Positions 9,520 through 44,939 of a stretch of DNA of 64,000 bases are shown piece after piece; positions within the stretch are counted from its first letter, which is position 1, and every line of letters starts with the position of its first letter. The position numbers and the translations under genes were made by a program. Origin of the DNA: Escherichia coli (GTDB lineage: Bacteria > Pseudomonadota > Gammaproteobacteria > Enterobacterales > Enterobacteriaceae). The notes beneath the pieces are model-generated. The model searched no databases and had not been told where the DNA came from. It saw nothing but the letters and a program-made list of their open reading frames with translations. The stretch lies in NCBI RefSeq assembly GCF_017348835.2, contig NZ_CP071375.1. The stretch is one strand, 5' to 3'.

Positions 9520-9726
9520 GAGTACACTACTCTCACTGATCGGGGTTTTCAGGCACACAAATAATAAGTTTATTCGCATCGCGAAGCAAACAGGGGCCAG
9601 CCTGTTGCCGATTTTTCATCCAATGATGCTTTCACCAGGCGGCACTAACCCGGACGTAGACTGTATTACAAAAGCGGCAAAAAGCAGAGACAAAAAACCC
9701 CCGCTTTGCAGCGAGGGTTGGAAATT

Positions 9727-9802
<76 letters not shown>

Positions 9803-9841
9803 ACGATGCGTTTACGTACCAAATTTGCTGGGTGCAAAATT

Positions 9842-9917
<76 letters not shown>

Positions 9918-9948
9918 GTCACGTAAAGCTTGTCGAGTTGACGGGCGG

Positions 9949-9977
9949 CATCATATGAATTCCGCCCGAATGTGTCA
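9949..9977 (-). promoter_or_regulatory. sigma70 promoter of the tRNA-Ala tandem
   Basis: On the minus strand: TTGACA (complement of 9972-9977), 17-bp spacer, TATGAT (complement of 9949-9954), ~30 nt upstream of the mature tRNA 5' end. Confidence 0.6.
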
Positions 9978-10137
9978 ACGGCAAATTGCAACGTGTAGTT
10001 TCAATCGCTGAAAAATCAGGCAAATGAACAATTTTGGAAAACCGCTCGCATTCAGTAGTTATTCATGTCACGGTTTCCTGTAAAGTGGTGCTATAAAATG
10101 AACTACTAATAGACCCACATACATTCAGGGAATTGTT

Positions 10138-10497
10138 ATGTTCAAGGAGAGGATGACACCAGATGAACTTGCCAGACTGACCGGCTATAGCCGCCAGACC
10201 ATTAATAAATGGGTACGCAAGGAAGGCTGGACGACGTCACCAAAACCAGGCGTCCAGGGTGGCAAAGCCCGACTGGTTCACGTCAATGAACAGGTTCGTG
10301 AATATATTCGTAATGCTGAACGTCCAGAAGGTCAGGGAGAAGCGCCTGCCCTTTCTGGTGATGCGCCGCTTGAAGTATTGCTGGTGACACTGGCGAAAGA
10401 GATGACGCCAGTTGAACAAAAACAGTTTACATCCTTGCTTCTGCGGGAAGGGATTATCGGATTGTTACAACGCTTAGGGATTCGCGATAGCAAATAA
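10138..10497 (+). CDS. yfeC: small putative DNA-binding protein (DUF1323 family)
   Basis: 119-aa ORF; an alternative in-frame ATG at 10153 (MTPDELARLTGYSRQTINKWVRKEGW...) may be the true start; HTH-like N-terminus. Confidence 0.75.
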   Translation: MFKERMTPDELARLTGYSRQTINKWVRKEGWTTSPKPGVQGGKARLVHVNEQVREYIRNAERPEGQGEAPALSGDAPLEVLLVTLAKEMTPVEQKQFTSLLLREGIIGLLQRLGIRDSK

Positions 10498-10498
10498 T

Positions 10499-10891
10499 AT
10501 GAAAAGATTACGCAACAAAATGACCACCGAAGAACTGGCTGAATGCCTCGGTGTGGCTAAACAAACTGTTAACCGTTGGATCAGAGAAAAAGGCTGGAAA
10601 ACGGAAAAATTTCCCGGCGTGAAAGGCGGTCGTGCCAGACTTATTCTGGTCGATACGCAAGTTTGCGAGTTTATTCAGAACACGCCAGCCTTCCATAACA
10701 CACCGATGCTTCTGGAAGCCGAAGAACCCCTTGCCGAATACGCACCGGGGATTCGCACTCCTGCTTATCGACAAATCATAAGCGCAATAGACAACATGAC
10801 TCACAGTGAGCAGGAAAAAGTTGCGCAATTTTTGTCACGCGAAGGAATTCGTAATTTCCTGGCTCGTCTCGACATAAATGAATCAGCATAA
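10499..10891 (+). CDS. yfeD: small putative DNA-binding protein, paralog of the upstream gene
   Basis: 130-aa ORF with N-terminus (TTEELAECLGVAKQTVNRWIREKGWKTEKFPGVKGGRARL) clearly paralogous to the preceding ORF. Confidence 0.8.
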   Translation: MKRLRNKMTTEELAECLGVAKQTVNRWIREKGWKTEKFPGVKGGRARLILVDTQVCEFIQNTPAFHNTPMLLEAEEPLAEYAPGIRTPAYRQIISAIDNMTHSEQEKVAQFLSREGIRNFLARLDINESA

Positions 10892-10892
10892 A

Positions 10893-10934
10893 TAAAAAAC
10901 GGCAGGGGTTTCTCTCCTGCCGTTTGTCTTTTAT
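10893..10934. terminator. bidirectional rho-independent terminator (yfeD / gltX)
   Basis: aaaaaaCGGCAGGggtttctctCCTGCCGtttgtctttt hairpin between convergent genes. Confidence 0.75.
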
Positions 10935-10941
10935 GCGCTAA

Positions 10942-12357
10942 TTACTGCTGATTTTCGCGTTCAGCAATAAAAGCCAGCGCTTTGTTGATACGCTCAATGC
11001 TACGTGTCTTACCGATCGCGTGAACGGTAACATCCAGTGCTGGAGACTGCCCCGCACCGGTTACGGCGACACGCAGCGGCATACCAACTTTACCCATACC
11101 CACTTCCAGCTCATCCGCCGTCGCCTGAATAGCGTGATGAACGTTTTCAGCGGTCCAGTCAGTAATCGCGGCCAGTTTGTCACGAACCACTTCCAGCGGC
11201 TGACGCGCTACCGGACGCAGATGTTTTTTCGCGGCGTCGGCATCGAACTCTGCAAAATCTTCGTAGAAATAACGGCAGCTCTGTGCCATCTCTTTCAGCG
11301 TCTTGCAGCGTTCGCCCAGCAGTTTCACCAGATCAGCCAGCTGCGGGCCGTTACGGGTATCGATATTTTCCTGCTCAATGTGCCACTGTAAGTGAGTAGC
11401 AACATACTCCGGCGGCAGCGCGTTAATGTAGTGATGGTTCAGCCACAGCAGCTTGTCGGTGTTGAACGCACTGGCAGATTTGCTGACGGCATTCAGGGTG
11501 AAGTATTTGATCATCTCTTCACGAGTGAAGATTTCCTGATCGCCGTGGGACCAGCCCAGACGCACCAGATAGTTCAGCAGTGCTTCTGGCAAATAACCGT
11601 CGTCACGATACTGCATTACGCTGACCGCCCCGTGACGTTTGGACAGTTTTTTACCGTCATCGCCGTTGATCATAGAAACGTGCGCGTAAACCGGCACCGG
11701 CGCTTTCAGGGCCTTAAGAATGTTGATCTGGCGTGGCGTGTTGTTGATATGGTCTTCGCCACGGATAACGTGGGTGATTTCCATATCCCAGTCATCGACA
11801 ACCACACAGAAGTTATAGGTTGGGGAACCATCGGTACGGCGGATAATAAGATCGTCCAGTTCCTGGTTGCTGAACTCGATCGGACCACGGATCTGATCGT
11901 CAAAAACAACAGAACCTTCCTGCGGGTTAGCAAAACGTACGACACACGGCTCATCATCAGCGTGATGCTCATGACTGTGGCGGCAGCGACCGTCATAACG
12001 CGGCTTCTCACCTTTCGCCATTTGCTCTTCGCGCAGCGCTTCCAGGCGCTCTTTAGAGCAATAGCATTTATAAGCTGTGCCCTCTTCCAGCATCTGATCG
12101 ATCACCGCGTTGTAGCGATCAAAACGTTTGGTCTGGAAGTACGGACCTTCATCCCACTCCAGGCTCAGCCAGTTCATGCCATCCATAATGGCTTCGATAG
12201 CTTCCGGCGTGGAACGCTCAAGATCGGTGTCTTCAATACGCAGCACGAACTCACCGCCGTGATTACGTGCAAAAAGCCAGGAGTAAAGAGCAGTACGCGC
12301 GCCGCCAACGTGCAGATAGCCTGTTGGGCTTGGCGCGAAGCGAGTTTTGATTTTCAT
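10942..12357 (-). CDS. gltX: glutamyl-tRNA synthetase
   Basis: 471-aa [30 protein letters not shown]... (HIGH-type class I motif), KLSKR motif present. Confidence 0.95.
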
Positions 12358-12570
12358 GAAATGGCCTTACGTTTAGAAAGATGCCGACAACCGGCAAATC
12401 CTGGAAAAATTGAGTGGGCGATATTCTATCACTCCCGCCTGATTCCTCAATGTAGTTCGGGTTGCAACCTTACGCATTATTGTTTTCGTTGACAAATTGC
12501 GCAACACGGTCTGTTTTGCGATCATCTTGCTTAAATTTACGACGAACGAACAATTTCTTTAGAAAATGCG

Positions 12571-12598
12571 TTGACTCATTTTGAACTCTCCCTATAAT
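12571..12598 (+). promoter_or_regulatory. sigma70 promoter of the valU-valX-valY-lysV tRNA operon
   Basis: TTGACT (12571-12576), 16-bp spacer, TATAAT (12593-12598), GC-rich discriminator, tRNA 5' end at 12616; AT-rich UP-like region upstream. Confidence 0.7.
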
Positions 12599-12615
12599 GC
12601 GACTCCACACAGCGG

Positions 12616-12691
12616 GGGTGATTAGCTCAGCTGGGAGAGCACCTCCCTTACAAGGAGGGGGTCGGCGGTTCGATCCCGTCATCACCCACCA
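12616..12691 (+). tRNA. valU: tRNA-Val (UAC)
   Basis: GGGTGATTAGCTCAGCTGGGAGAGCACCTCCCTTACAAGGAGGGGGTCGGCGGTTCGATCCCGTCATCACCCACCA. Confidence 0.95.
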
Positions 12692-12735
12692 ACTACTTTA
12701 TGTAGTCTCCGCCGTGTAGCAAGAAATTGAGAAGT

Positions 12736-12811
12736 GGGTGATTAGCTCAGCTGGGAGAGCACCTCCCTTACAAGGAGGGGGTCGGCGGTTCGATCCCGTC
12801 ATCACCCACCA
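12736..12811 (+). tRNA. valX: tRNA-Val (UAC)
   Basis: Identical 76-nt copy. Confidence 0.95.
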
Positions 12812-12857
12812 CTTTCTCACCAGCTAAATTTCTTGTAAAAATGTGAAGTACCGAAGT

Positions 12858-12933
12858 GGGTGATTAGCTCAGCTGGGAGAGCACCTCCCTTACAAGGAGG
12901 GGGTCGGCGGTTCGATCCCGTCATCACCCACCA
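12858..12933 (+). tRNA. valY: tRNA-Val (UAC)
   Basis: Identical 76-nt copy. Confidence 0.95.
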
Positions 12934-12937
12934 CTTC

Positions 12938-13013
12938 GGGTCGTTAGCTCAGTTGGTAGAGCAGTTGACTTTTAATCAATTGGTCGCAGGTTCGAATCCT
13001 GCACGACCCACCA
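12938..13013 (+). tRNA. lysV: tRNA-Lys (UUU)
   Basis: GGGTCGTTAGCTCAGTTGGTAGAGCAGTTGACTTTTAATCAATTGGTCGCAGGTTCGAATCCTGCACGACCCACCA. Confidence 0.95.
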
Positions 13014-13016
13014 ATG

Positions 13017-13045
13017 TAAAAAAGCGCCCTAAAGGCGCTTTTTTG
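13017..13045 (+). terminator. rho-independent terminator of the tRNA operon
   Basis: aaaaaaGCGCCctaaaGGCGCttttttgc. Confidence 0.8.
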
Positions 13046-13132
13046 CTATCTGCGATTTGTAAGATTGATTTTTCTTCTCAAGTTCCTTGTTCTTCTACCG
13101 ATATTACCTCGTACAGTGACGAGGACTGAACA

Positions 13133-13474
13133 ATGGCCACTATCTCTTCAACTTCAATTCCTTCCATACAAACACAGAGTAGTAACAGGGCATCACAAGG
13201 TAGCGATGTTGCTTCACAAATCGCGCGGATAAGTCAGCAAATCATCAAACTCACTCAACAAATTAAAGAGATTGTAGACACTAGCGGCAGTGCTGAAGAC
13301 AAGCAAAAACAGGCCGAATTGATTCAACAGCAAATCACCCTACTGGAAACACAACTGGCGCAGTTGCAGAGACAGCAGGCAGAAAAGGCGCAGGAGAAAG
13401 AGCAGCGTTTGTCTCTGAATGTATCCCTTCTAAATCCTGTTGAAAATACGACTCATATCGATATCTATATCTGA
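13133..13474 (+). CDS. FlxA-like Q-rich coiled-coil small protein
   Basis: 113-aa ORF with RBS GAGGA 6 nt upstream; low-complexity S/Q-rich N-terminus then heptad-like Q/L/K repeats ([10 protein letters not shown]...[22 protein letters not shown]); resembles the FlxA-like family from memory. Confidence 0.55.
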
Positions 13475-14391
13475 TACAACGGATCCCCTTCCCGCCCAGC
13501 CATTAGCGTATTGCCCTGGTCTCGTACCACGTCCCATAACGCTTCAGCGGCGGTGGAAAGTGAACGGTTTTTCCTGCGCACCAGCATCAACTGGCGTTCC
13601 ACCACCGGCGTAATGCGCTTTACCACCAGTGGGCTACCTTCAGGCAATGGTAGCGCCAGTGCGGGAAGAATACTGATGCCGATGCCTGCGGCTACCATCG
13701 GGAACAGCGTCGCCGGATGTCCAATCTCCTGCACAATATTCGCCTGAATACCATTGCGCGCCAGCGCTGCGTCAATCAGCGGTCGGCTGCCTGACGCGTA
13801 ATCCTGCAACACCAATTTCGCTCCCTGTAATGCCTGCCAGGGTACATAATCTTCCACGGCCAAAGCGCTATCGCGATGGCAAAGCAGAAAGAAAGGCTCG
13901 GAAAGAATCGCTTCACATTGCAGATCGCCCACTGGGCCTGGATCTATGACGATGCCAAAGTCGACATCTCCCTGGCGAATACTTTCAATCACCCACTGCT
14001 GCGGACGATCGTGCAGGACAAACTGAATATCTGGATAGCGGCGATGGCTTTCAGCAATGCATTGCGGAATAAGATGCGCGGAAATGGTCTGGCTGGCAGC
14101 GACCCGAACTTTTCCGCTCAGTTGTTGCCCCATACGCCCGGTATCGCGCAACGTGCTGTTAAGTTCATCCAGCAGTCGCTCAAGACGCAAAGCCAACTGC
14201 TGCCCTGCATCTGTAAGTACCACTTCACGCGTGGTTCTGTCCAGCAGGCGAACACCTGTATGATTTTCCAGCTCCTTCACACTGTGACTTACTGCCGACT
14301 GGCTCAGGCCGATACGCTCTCCTGCACGACTAAAACTTTTCTCCTGCGCTACTGTGACGAAAACCTTTAACTGTTTTAAAGAATAATTCAT
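13465..14391 (-). CDS. yfeR: LysR-family transcriptional regulator
   Basis: 308-aa [45 protein letters not shown]... (LysR HTH plus substrate-binding domain). Confidence 0.85.
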
Positions 14392-14480
14392 CTGTTTTCT
14401 TCATGAATGGATGCAATAAATCAATTTTATTTCTCAAACTGGAAGAAGCACAATAGAACCATCGATCATCTGGAGTCTTT

Positions 14481-15479
14481 ATGAAACTTTTTCGTATCCT
14501 CGATCCTTTCACCTTAACCCTGATCACGGTGGTGTTGCTGGCCTCTTTCTTTCCGGCCAGAGGCGATTTCGTCCCCTTCTTTGAAAATCTGACCACCGCA
14601 GCTATTGCCCTGCTGTTCTTTATGCACGGCGCGAAGTTGTCGCGTGAGGCGATTATTGCTGGCGGTGGTCACTGGCGACTGCATTTGTGGGTAATGTGCA
14701 GCACCTTCGTGCTGTTTCCGATTCTGGGTGTACTGTTTGCCTGGTGGAAACCGGTAAATGTCGACCCGATGCTCTACTCCGGTTTTCTCTACTTGTGCAT
14801 TCTCCCGGCTACCGTGCAGTCTGCAATCGCCTTCACGTCAATGGCGGGCGGTAACGTCGCGGCGGCGGTTTGTTCTGCGTCGGCATCCAGCCTGCTGGGG
14901 ATTTTCCTTTCACCATTGCTGGTTGGCCTGGTGATGAATGTTCACGGTGCAGGGGGCAGCCTTGAGCAGGTCGGTAAAATTATGCTGCAACTGTTGCTGC
15001 CGTTTGTGTTGGGGCATCTTTCCCGGCCGTGGATTGGTGACTGGGTGTCGCGCAATAAAAAATGGATTGCGAAAACTGACCAGACGTCCATTCTGTTGGT
15101 GGTTTATACAGCGTTCAGCGAAGCCGTCGTTAATGGTATCTGGCATAAAGTTGGCTGGGGATCATTGCTGTTTATCGTGGTGGTCAGCTGCGTTCTTCTG
15201 GCTATCGTGATTGTAGTTAACGTCTTTATGGCACGCCGACTAGGCTTCAATAAAGCAGATGAAATTACTATCGTCTTTTGTGGTTCGAAAAAGAGTCTGG
15301 CAAATGGCATCCCGATGGCAAACATTCTGTTCCCCACATCGGTGATCGGTATGATGGTGCTGCCCCTGATGATTTTCCATCAGATCCAATTGATGGTCTG
15401 TGCGGTGCTGGCGCGGCGATACAAACGCCAGACCGAACAGTTACAGGCACAGCAGGAAAGCAGCACCGATAAAGCTTAA
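14481..15479 (+). CDS. yfeH: bile acid:sodium symporter (BASS)-family membrane protein
   Basis: 332-aa polytopic ORF, divergent from yfeR. Confidence 0.8.
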   Translation: MKLFRILDPFTLTLITVVLLASFFPARGDFVPFFENLTTAAIALLFFMHGAKLSREAIIAGGGHWRLHLWVMCSTFVLFPILGVLFAWWKPVNVDPMLYSGFLYLCILPATVQSAIAFTSMAGGNVAAAVCSASASSLLGIFLSPLLVGLVMNVHGAGGSLEQVGKIMLQLLLPFVLGHLSRPWIGDWVSRNKKWIAKTDQTSILLVVYTAFSEAVVNGIWHKVGWGSLLFIVVVSCVLLAIVIVVNVFMARRLGFNKADEITIVFCGSKKSLANGIPMANILFPTSVIGMMVLPLMIFHQIQLMVCAVLARRYKRQTEQLQAQQESSTDKA

Positions 15480-15694
15480 AGCGGACGCTTCAGGGGCTGG
15501 ACCAGTTGCGTCAGCCCCTCGGTTTTAATCAGCAGCGTGATTTGCATTAGCTCACCGAGCTTCCCTGCCGGGAACTCATCTTTGCGGGCAAACCACAGCA
15601 GATACTCCTCCGGCAGGTCGATTAAGCGACGCCCTTTGTATTTGCCAAACGGCATTATCGTATTGGCTATTTCAATCAGCTGCTCTTTTTCCAT
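15476..15694 (-). CDS. ypeB: DUF3820 small protein
   Basis: ORF 15476..15787 trimmed to MEKEQLIEIANTIMPFGKYKGRRLIDLPEEYLLWFARKDEF... start (ATG complement 15692-15694), directly downstream of ligA. Confidence 0.7.
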   Translation of the reverse strand: MEKEQLIEIANTIMPFGKYKGRRLIDLPEEYLLWFARKDEFPAGKLGELMQITLLIKTEGLTQLVQPLKRPL

Positions 15695-15695
15695 C

Positions 15696-17720
<2,025 letters not shown>

Positions 17721-43577: not shown

Positions 43578-44939
43578 TCAGAAGAACAGTGACGGATCGC
43601 CCGCCCGTTTGGTCAGGCGACCGTTTGCCATAATGCCCATGCTTTCCAGCCAGCGTTCAAACTCCGGTGACGGGCGCAGGTTGAGTAACTGACGCACAGT
43701 GGCGGTATCGTGGAATGCGGTGGTCTGGTAATTGAGCATGATGTCATCACCCAGCGGCATCCCCATGATGTAGTTGCAGCCTGCGGTGGCGAGCAGGATC
43801 ATCAGGTTTTCGTTGAGGTTCTGGTCAGCGTCAGCGTGGTTGGTGTAACAGCAGTCACAGCCCATAGAGATGCCGCTCAGCTTGCCCATAAAGTGATCTT
43901 CTAAGCCCGCACGAATAATCTGGCGGTCATTGTAGAGATACTCCGGCCCAATAAAGCCGACCACGGTGTTGACGATAAACGGATCGTAATGACGCGCCAG
44001 CCCGTAGTTACGCGCTTCCATGGTCACCTGGTCTGCGCCGTAGTTGGCACCCGCCGACAGCGCCGAACCTTGCCCGGTTTCGAAGTAGAGGCAGTTTTCC
44101 CCGGCGATACGGTTGAACTCTGCACCCACTGCGCGCGCTTCGTCGAGCATCGCCAGTTCCACGCCAAACTCTTTCAGCCCTTTTTCACTGCCACAGATAC
44201 TCTGGAAAATCAGCCCGCCTGGTGCGCCACGACGAATCGCTTCGATCTGGGTGGTGACGTGCGCCAGTACGCAGCCCTGAGTTGGGATGTTGAATTTGTC
44301 GATCACGCCATAGATGGTGTCCAGCACGCGGCTTAAGTTTTCCACGTCGTCAGTTACCGGGTTGACGCCGATCACCGCATCGCCCACCCCGAAGGAAAGC
44401 CCTTCGTAGATTTGCGCGGCGATACTTTGCACGTCGTCACGGGTGTCATTTGGCTGCAAACGGGCGCTAAAGGTGCCCGGAATACCGATGGTGGTATTGG
44501 CCTTTTTGATTACCGGCATTTTCTTCGCGCCGTAGATCAGGTCCGCGTTGGAGCAAATCTTCGCTACCGCCGCGACCACTTCCGAGGTCAGCCCTTTGCG
44601 GGTAAAGGCAATGTCGTCCACGCTGGTTTCATCGCTCAGCACATACTCACGCAGTTCGCTGATGCTCCAGTTTTTAATCTGGTTGTAGGCCGTTTCGTTA
44701 ACATCGTCCTGAATCAGCCGCGTCACGCAGTCATCTTCATAGGCAATCACCGGATTATTGCGGATGTCCGCTACGGTCATTTCCGACAACACCTGCTTTG
44801 CTGCCACGCGCTCCTGTGAGCTTGCCGCTGCAACGCCCGCCAGCACATCCCCCGAACGCAGTTCGTTGGCTTTAGCCAGCACCTCTTTTACATCCTTAAA
44901 CTGATATACATTGCCGAACAATGTGGTCTTTAGTTTCAT
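43578..44939 (-). CDS. eutB: ethanolamine ammonia-lyase large subunit
   Basis: ORF trimmed to MKLKTTLFGNVYQFKDVKEV... start (ATG complement 44937-44939), 453 aa. Confidence 0.93.
   Translation of the reverse strand: MKLKTTLFGNVYQFKDVKEVLAKANELRSGDVLAGVAAASSQERVAAKQVLSEMTVADIRNNPVIAYEDDCVTRLIQDDVNETAYNQIKNWSISELREYVLSDETSVDDIAFTRKGLTSEVVAAVAKICSNADLIYGAKKMPVIKKANTTIGIPGTFSARLQPNDTRDDVQSIAAQIYEGLSFGVGDAVIGVNPVTDDVENLSRVLDTIYGVIDKFNIPTQGCVLAHVTTQIEAIRRGAPGGLIFQSICGSEKGLKEFGVELAMLDEARAVGAEFNRIAGENCLYFETGQGSALSAGANYGADQVTMEARNYGLARHYDPFIVNTVVGFIGPEYLYNDRQIIRAGLEDHFMGKLSGISMGCDCCYTNHADADQNLNENLMILLATAGCNYIMGMPLGDDIMLNYQTTAFHDTATVRQLLNLRPSPEFERWLESMGIMANGRLTKRAGDPSLFF

Follow-up and report, generated by a model that had tools for sequence, protein, structure and literature searches.

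Introduction

In Escherichia coli K-12 MG1655 the genes that follow the valU-valX-valY-lysV tRNA operon stand in the order lysV, xapR, xapB, xapA, yfeN, yfeR, yfeH, ypeB, and ligA. In the E. coli DNA analysed here (a stretch of 64,000 nucleotides of contig NZ_CP071375.1, called the window below), the ORF list holds only one gene between lysV and yfeR, a small one that encodes an FlxA-like protein. The question raised by this locus is whether the small ORF is a remnant, a piece of cargo inserted at the flank of a tRNA gene, or a gene with a history of its own. A preliminary description, made from the letters of the window, had offered the first two possibilities. The analysis reported here turns the proposed order around: the FlxA-like gene would be the older resident of the slot and xap-yfeN the insert.

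Organization of the lysV-yfeR Interval

The features of the interval are collected in Table 1. Three tRNA-Val genes (12616-12933) precede lysV, a tRNA-Lys(UUU) at 12938-13013 (ARAGORN). From the end of lysV to the ATG of the FlxA-like ORF there are 119 bp, and the ORF overlaps the convergent yfeR by 10 bp at its stop codon (ORF list), in agreement with the preliminary description. The 113-residue product contains 18% glutamine and has two long predicted helices. The terminator of the tRNA operon is identical in K-12. After this identity over lysV and the terminator, the homology to K-12 stops near 13056-13067 on the left side (alignment, blastn), and it is back from 13464, one base ahead of the yfeR stop codon (13465-13467). 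The allele-specific DNA between these points amounts to about 396 bp in the window versus about 4.4 kb (xapR-xapB-xapA-yfeN) in K-12. The K-12 layout given in the preliminary description is correct, as judged from MG1655, and the small ORF does not lie between lysV and yfeR in that strain.

Table 1: Features of the tRNA-yfeR region (positions are those of the window).
Feature	Position	Strand	Evidence and remarks
valU-valX-valY-lysV tRNA operon (three tRNA-Val UAC, then tRNA-Lys UUU)	12616-13013	+	ARAGORN, Rfam tRNA; conserved left flank
Intrinsic terminator of the tRNA operon	13018-13046	+	11-nt perfect inverted repeat AAAAAAGCGCC/GGCGCTTTTTT, then a T-run
Allele-specific segment, 396 bp, 43% GC	13068-13463		Pairwise alignments, blastn, GC content
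Predicted sigma-28 (FliA) promoter, class-3 type	13078-13105	+	PWM, cross-genus conservation
6-bp inverted repeat CCTCGT/ACGAGG	13107-13124	+	Folding; 3' arm contains the Shine-Dalgarno GAGGA (13121-13125)
FlxA-like family protein CDS, 113 aa, ATG start	13133-13474	+	Pfam, RefSeq, AlphaFold2, orthologue alignment, dN/dS
yfeR, LysR-family regulator, 308 aa	13465-14391	-	ORF list, tblastn synteny; conserved right flank

In K-12 MG1655 the lysV 3' end and terminator occur again as a 61-nt repeat, 156 nt downstream of the first copy (2521311-2521527; locus L002, 3312-3528). An Rfam RtT element (RF00391, 47.3 bits) spans this duplicated end and is absent from the window after 13056. The element is present in some genomes that carry the FlxA-like allele, such as strain D8, and it therefore varies independently of the exchange between xap and FlxA-like genes. 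Identity to K-12 amounts to 97.7% in the left flank (alaXW-yfeCD-gltX-tRNAs, 9686-13056) and to 99.1% in the right one (yfeR-ligA, 13464-17534); the YfeD protein is only 93% identical to its K-12 counterpart. The two flanks may have had different recombination histories.

The FlxA-Like Protein

The preliminary description had named the FlxA-like family and proposed an HMM search. The ORF scores 52.2 bits with the Pfam profile PF14282 (FlxA), whose gathering cut-off lies at 26.3 (E=7e-14); the match covers positions 4-82 of the 101 in the profile. It is named 'FlxA-like family protein' in RefSeq; NCBIfam holds no specific model for it. The protein is 43% identical to K-12 FlxA over the coiled-coil core. 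The C-terminal motif IDIY[IV] is common to K-12 FlxA and all orthologues, the tail of the window protein being HIDIYI, and in the alignment of 16 orthologues with K-12 FlxA residue D110 is invariant and I109 and Y112 are nearly so. K-12 FlxA, which matches PHROG 11044 at E=1.8e-71, defines this phage family of unknown function, and the window protein matches it weakly (4.6e-8).

An AlphaFold2 model built on a 17-sequence alignment has a mean pLDDT of 67. The helices predicted at residues 24-49 and 54-99 (pLDDT 82-89) form a hairpin, and residues 1-22 and 96-113 fall below 50. The first 22 residues are rich in Ser, Thr, and Gln and are predicted to be disordered, which is compatible with an export signal and not specific for one. 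The product is predicted to be a helical-hairpin coiled coil of about 110 residues, disordered at the N-terminus and ending in a hydrophobic tail that is conserved. A sequence profile search of the PDB returned only designed coiled coils and no homologue with a solved structure; these matches reflect composition, not homology, and were rejected.

The family is small: an exhaustive HMM search of 1.8 billion cluster representatives retrieved 278 at E<=1e-3. A word-indexed protein search with the FlxA-like protein gave only 8 matches, which made it necessary to scan genomes and to run the exhaustive HMM search, and exact-sequence cluster look-ups of the E. coli protein found no entry in the collection queried.

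Conserved Synteny and the Older Allele

One genome per species was scanned with two peptide patterns, a scan of limited sensitivity that returned 22 loci encoding FlxA-like relatives in Pseudocitrobacter, Kluyvera, Citrobacter, Pluralibacter, Enterobacter, Cedecea, and unclassified Enterobacteriaceae. Wherever the contig reaches, tblastn gave the gene order gltX, tRNA cluster, FlxA-like gene, yfeR, yfeH, ypeB, and ligA; in Cedecea the FlxA-like gene is present and yfeR and yfeH are missing. In the relatives the FlxA-like gene and the convergent yfeR overlap, abut, or lie at most 18 nt apart. The ORF is intact, with 111-117 codons for amino acids, in the 21 loci that have the whole gene on the contig, and the contig of the remaining one (L015) ends at residue 89. 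In all comparisons with unsaturated dS the dN/dS ratio was 0.05-0.17, except for the near-identical pair of the window and a Pseudocitrobacter locus (0.56 at a dS of 0.10). These ratios indicate that the orthologues are under purifying selection and, as judged from its sequence, the ORF is a genuine gene, not an open frame that arose by chance.

One of the loci, filed as 'Chryseobacterium sp. 18061' (L012, CACSKA010000009.1), has the enterobacterial arrangement gltX-tRNA-FlxA-like-yfeR-ligA and is near-identical to that of Citrobacter sp. 18056 (L011); the assembly is probably contaminated or mislabelled.

Two Citrobacter loci, one from C. amalonaticus (L024, 2639-6336) and one from a Citrobacter sp. 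(L025, 822-4528), carry tRNAs, xapR, xapB, xapA, the FlxA-like gene, and yfeR, and are without yfeN. Their xapR-xapB-xapA products are 82-89% identical to those of K-12 at the amino acid level. Since both modules are found side by side in these loci, the insertion of xapRBA can be separated from the event that removed the FlxA-like gene. In E. coli of the xap type, yfeN occupies the exact position that the FlxA-like gene has elsewhere. The slot shared with other genera, the Citrobacter layouts, and the position of yfeN together point to the FlxA-like gene as the older resident at the level of the family and to xap, with or without yfeN, as the insert; on these layouts K-12 is the derived state at lysV-yfeR. 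We hold with good confidence that the ORF is an intact chromosomal member of PF14282, the older syntenic occupant of the tRNA-yfeR slot in Enterobacteriaceae, with a sigma-28 promoter of its own (described below) and most likely class 3 expression.

Distribution in E. coli

A genome was counted as a carrier when it had at least 80% of the FlxA-like or of the xap-yfeN segment. The FlxA-like segment was found in 1,307 of 5,426 complete E. coli genomes (24%), in every case chromosomal and with few exceptions single-copy, and the xap-yfeN segment in 4,066, about three quarters; K-12 is of the latter type. The locus is variable, as the preliminary description had proposed, and because the two counts total 5,373 it is essentially biallelic. 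The layout of O157:H7 EDL933 is exactly that of the window, and other carriers of the FlxA-like segment include O55:H7, O121, O145, O111:H21, and derivatives of E. coli B. The allele is diverse inside the species, with 226 genomes at 95-99% identity.

Several differences were observed around these alleles. In EDL933 the FlxA-like protein (L001, 4403-4744) has Q43H and, within the conserved C-terminal motif, D110G; yfeR (L001, 4735-5661) is annotated as a pseudogene with an internal stop; and an IS200/IS605 TnpB/TnpA unit lies between yfeD and gltX (L001, 453-2094), where the window has none. Strain HH97 (NZ_CP116409.1; L003, 3300-4520) has a rare third allele, about 1.2 kb of decayed and partly duplicated FlxA-like copies. 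They are about 86% identical and frameshifted, contain long poly-T runs, and have lost the -10 element of the promoter, and RtT-like repeats of tRNA ends lie between them; HH97 has just two tRNA-Val genes. The xap-yfeN block (L002, 3480-7925) falls into two identity classes, one of at least 99% in 3,395 records and one of about 93% in many B2-type strains (APEC O18, UPEC), and the latter diverges more than the typical core genome.

The same polymorphism has been described from its other side. The xapABR region, specific to K-12 versus O157:H7, is listed for xapA/xapB as K-island 103 / K-loop 178 in a catalogue that covers the presence or absence of the xap genes by comparative hybridisation (PMC2749873), and xapBR are reported as accessory genes with a prevalence of about 45-50% in phylogroups A and B1 (PMC9602453). 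With the xap block catalogued as a K-island and xapBR reported as accessory, the polymorphism was already known. In the papers searched, no discussion was found of the FlxA-like gene as the reciprocal allele, of the promoter ahead of it, or of its synteny across genera. The FlxA-like gene is already annotated, in more than 1,300 complete genomes, and is an ordinary known difference between strains; together with the K-island catalogue this leaves little discovery value in the locus as such.

Possible Lateral Exchange and the tRNA Flank

The preliminary description had also suggested alternative cargo at the flank of the tRNA gene, and some traits of the ORF invite such a reading. It has 43.3% GC versus 52% for the window, and its distribution is patchy (24%); these are traits of genomic islands, but they are weak and non-specific. 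Neither an integrase nor a recombinase was found beside the tRNA in the slot of the window, the K-12 block consists only of xapR, xapB, xapA, and yfeN, and no direct repeats of the attL/attR type were found flanking either allele. The 61-nt duplicate of the lysV 3' end in K-12 sits to the left of the xap block, as lysV itself does, within the RtT element, and is not a repeat at the far boundary. A phage search gave no match to the FlxA-like protein subfamily. A plasmid search (PLSDB) gave only two matches, NZ_OL790696.1 and NZ_CP141089.1, and no true plasmid copy; these two records are chromosomes of 4.8-4.9 Mb with the FlxA-like locus, filed as plasmids. As the gene stands in the same slot in at least six other genera, the cargo proposal was not borne out, and the FlxA-like ORF is probably not cargo.

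An alternative to an old resident is that E. coli acquired the FlxA-like gene horizontally, by homologous recombination from a Pseudocitrobacter-like donor, and that it replaced an older xap-yfeN at a tRNA-linked hotspot. Besides the low GC content and the patchy distribution across E. coli lineages, this alternative draws on the comparison with an uncultured Pseudocitrobacter MAG (L005), to which the window is anomalously similar over the FlxA-like gene, with a dS of just 0.10. Over 12938-14437 and beyond, the DNA identity to this MAG descends in steps, from 91-97% in the FlxA-like gene to 85-91% in yfeR and 73-85% in yfeH-ligA, and YfeR is 95% identical in Pseudocitrobacter versus about 80% in other genera. 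The step suggests that the Escherichia and Pseudocitrobacter lineages have exchanged the flxA-like/yfeR segment laterally, in either direction, and with such an unusual similarity a lateral re-acquisition of the gene by E. coli is possible. No representative of another Escherichia or a Salmonella species was recovered in the genome scan, which is weak evidence since the scan relied on two peptide patterns. The FlxA family also has a prophage-borne branch, with K-12 FlxA in the Qin prophage and PHROG 11044. Nevertheless, at least six genera share the slot, the orientation, and the promoter, the locus is without integrase and flanking repeats, and neither phage nor plasmid carriers were found. 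The internal diversity of the allele in E. coli and the decayed, duplicated version of HH97 disfavour a recent import. We regard acquisition from such a donor as possible, though rather unlikely, and return to the FlxA-like gene as the older resident.

A Predicted FliA Promoter

The tRNA operon ends in a terminator with a perfect stem of 11 bp (13018-13044), and the FlxA-like ORF therefore needs a promoter of its own; judging by this stem, the terminator isolates the ORF from tRNA read-through. A sigma-28 PWM was built from 17 K-12 FliA promoters verified by ChIP-seq (PMC4183435, Table 2), with flxA held out. The site ahead of the FlxA-like gene scored 18.7 bits and ranked first among 127,946 positions when both strands of the 64-kb window were counted, versus 14.0 for the runner-up; the held-out K-12 flxA promoter scored 20.5. 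The predicted site consists of a -35 element TCAAGTTC (13078-13085), a spacer of 11 nt, and a -10 element ACCGATAT (13097-13104), 27 nt upstream of the ATG. K-12 flxA has the consensus-type elements TAAAGATT-N11-GCCGATAG at the same spacing. TCAAG(T/C) and GCCGATA stand at a fixed 8+11 spacing ahead of every orthologue, 26-35 nt before the ATG, in DNA that is otherwise unalignable between genera, and the site ranks first within its own locus in 22 of the 23 related loci (the 22 orthologous loci and E. coli EDL933). No sigma-70-like site was found in the gap 13046-13132, and the xapA-yfeN spacer of K-12 holds no remnant sigma-28 site upstream of yfeN (best 4.6 bits).

The second-tier matches of the PWM in the window, at 43865-43892 (+, 14.0 bits) and 43952-43979 (+, 12.2 bits), stand close together, within about 100 bp.

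The first base of the -10 element, at 13097, is polymorphic (G/A), with ACCGATAT in the window and GCCGATAT in EDL933 and all other genera. An exact 45-mer with A at this base is found in about 602 of about 1,307 carriers of the allele, including this genome. The ycgR and fliD promoters of K-12 use the same ACCGATA variant (PMC4183435), and for this reason the A form is probably functional.

FliA binds at K-12 flxA, whose expression of 280 units is reduced to 2 when fliA is deleted (PMC4183435, Table 2). By strong inference from the site and its conservation, the window gene would also depend on FliA. With the terminator upstream and its own sigma-28 promoter, it would most likely be expressed as a late (class 3) gene of the flagellar regulon, like K-12 flxA. 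Because the two genes converge and no terminator-like site was found between the FlxA-like gene and yfeR, transcription of the former may run antisense into the 3' end of yfeR.

The sigma-28 motif could instead be fortuitous or non-functional, with transcription by sigma-70 or by read-through, or the main product could be an antisense RNA that modulates yfeR, the protein being secondary. The conserved overlap or abutment with the convergent yfeR and the missing terminator between the two genes are in line with the antisense version, many FliA sites of K-12 are non-productive (PMC4183435), and about 602 genomes, this one among them, depart from G at the first base of the -10 element. A fortuitous motif would hardly keep an invariant 11-nt spacer and hold its distance to the ATG constant in genera between which the DNA around it cannot be aligned. 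The gap offers no sigma-70-like site and lies behind a strong terminator, the coding sequence is under strong purifying selection, and ACCGATA elements work at ycgR and fliD. We consider such a non-flagellar or antisense origin improbable and keep to the FlxA-like gene as a protein-coding gene with its own sigma-28 promoter.

The preliminary description had suggested that the ORF may be a remnant. A decaying gene or pseudogene that outlasted the loss of its neighbours is effectively refuted by the conservation data and has next to no probability. In favour of such a reading, the ORF is small, it abuts and overlaps yfeR, the conserved C-terminal motif has D replaced by G in EDL933, and HH97 shows that the locus is able to decay. 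Against it, the ORF has its full length and termini that are both conserved in the family, shares IDIY[IV] with K-12 FlxA and the orthologues, has a dN/dS of 0.05-0.17, keeps its own promoter and Shine-Dalgarno sequence, and has an intact frame in more than 1,300 genomes with CDS annotation.

A Possible 5' Leader Hairpin

Between the promoter and the start codon a 6-bp stem (13107-13112 with 13119-13124) would pair an anti-Shine-Dalgarno tract to the Shine-Dalgarno sequence in E. coli, with a minimum free energy of -8.6 kcal/mol. As the 3' arm contains GAGGA, the repeat could sequester the ribosome-binding site of the FlxA-like gene. The Shine-Dalgarno sequence of the window is paired more than in 98% of shuffles, and p was about 0.01-0.03 for five of the 18 sequences compared in this way, those of E. 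coli, Pseudocitrobacter L005, Kluyvera L009, L013, and L021; the signal was absent in Citrobacter, Enterobacter, and Cedecea. RNAalifold gave no consensus structure for the 5'-UTR across the orthologues. Comparable anti-Shine-Dalgarno tracts are present in Kluyvera and Pluralibacter.

Possible Role and Comparison with Known Systems

What is established for the FlxA family is the FliA dependence of the K-12 gene and its absent motility phenotype. K-12 FlxA was dispensable for motility according to Ide and Kutsukake (1997), as cited in PMC4183435, and the family may on that account have no flagellar role at all. In a proteome of E. coli co-culture supernatants, 'Protein FlxA' (K-12-type) appears together with FlgK, FlgL, FliD, the flagellin FliC, and FlgM (PMC6391000). 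The list has every canonical late flagellar export substrate, plus cytoplasmic proteins such as CheY (PMC6391000), and given the latter, lysis could be the source of the supernatant FlxA.

The presence of FlxA in the supernatant, the class-3-type expression, the disordered N-terminus, and the conserved C-terminal tail together suggest a lead on export. The FlxA-like product could be an accessory late-flagellar protein, dispensable for motility as such and possibly exported via the flagellar type III apparatus; we offer this as a speculation with a small chance of being right. Equally tentative is its extension to the whole family, in which FlxA proteins would be unrecognised small proteins exported late via the flagellar type III apparatus, or regulators that dock by IDIY[IV], with E. 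coli dimorphic for one of them at lysV-yfeR. If true, E. coli would be split between keeping a flagellar-regulon gene and carrying a xanthosine-scavenging module (xapRBA and the Tsx-like channel YfeN).

Whatever the role, E. coli other than K-12 and many enteric genera have a chromosomal FlxA orthologue with a deeply conserved predicted FliA promoter, and because of this orthologue the flagellar regulon as defined in K-12 misses a conserved member. The FlxA-like gene is a clean, testable candidate for the role of FlxA proteins.

Three known systems can be compared with this gene. The first is that of the FliJ/YscO/CdsO stalk proteins of type III secretion. A Foldseek search of the model against the PDB gave nothing at E<=0.001, and its top match, at E=0.25 among generic hairpins, was a helical hairpin of about the same length, the protein CdsO of the CdsV-CdsO complex (6wa9). 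CdsO is without sequence similarity to the FlxA-like protein, the E value is not significant, and the LSD1 tower domain and designed hairpins match equally well; a kinship with CdsO and other FliJ-like proteins was rejected as a generic fold match.

The second comprises the late flagellar type III substrates and regulators FlgM, FlgK/L, FliD, and FliC. The likeness lies in a probable class-3 expression, small size, a disordered N-terminus, and a conserved C-terminal segment. These proteins differ in having no sequence homology to the FlxA-like protein, whose export is hypothetical and which has no known chaperone. The likeness concerns a possible mode of action, not membership in a family.

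The third system is K-12 FlxA itself (b1566), the founding member of PF14282. It belongs to the same family, is of similar size (110 versus 113 residues), and has the same IDIY[IV] tail, and the architecture of its promoter is that of the window gene, with sigma-28 -35 and -10 elements, a spacer of 11 nt, and about 25-30 nt to the ATG. FliA dependence has been measured for K-12 flxA only, and that of the window gene is predicted from sequence. The two differ in their location: K-12 FlxA is borne by the cryptic prophage Qin, whereas the window gene belongs to a chromosomal group of syntenic orthologues beside yfeR that is without a phage match.
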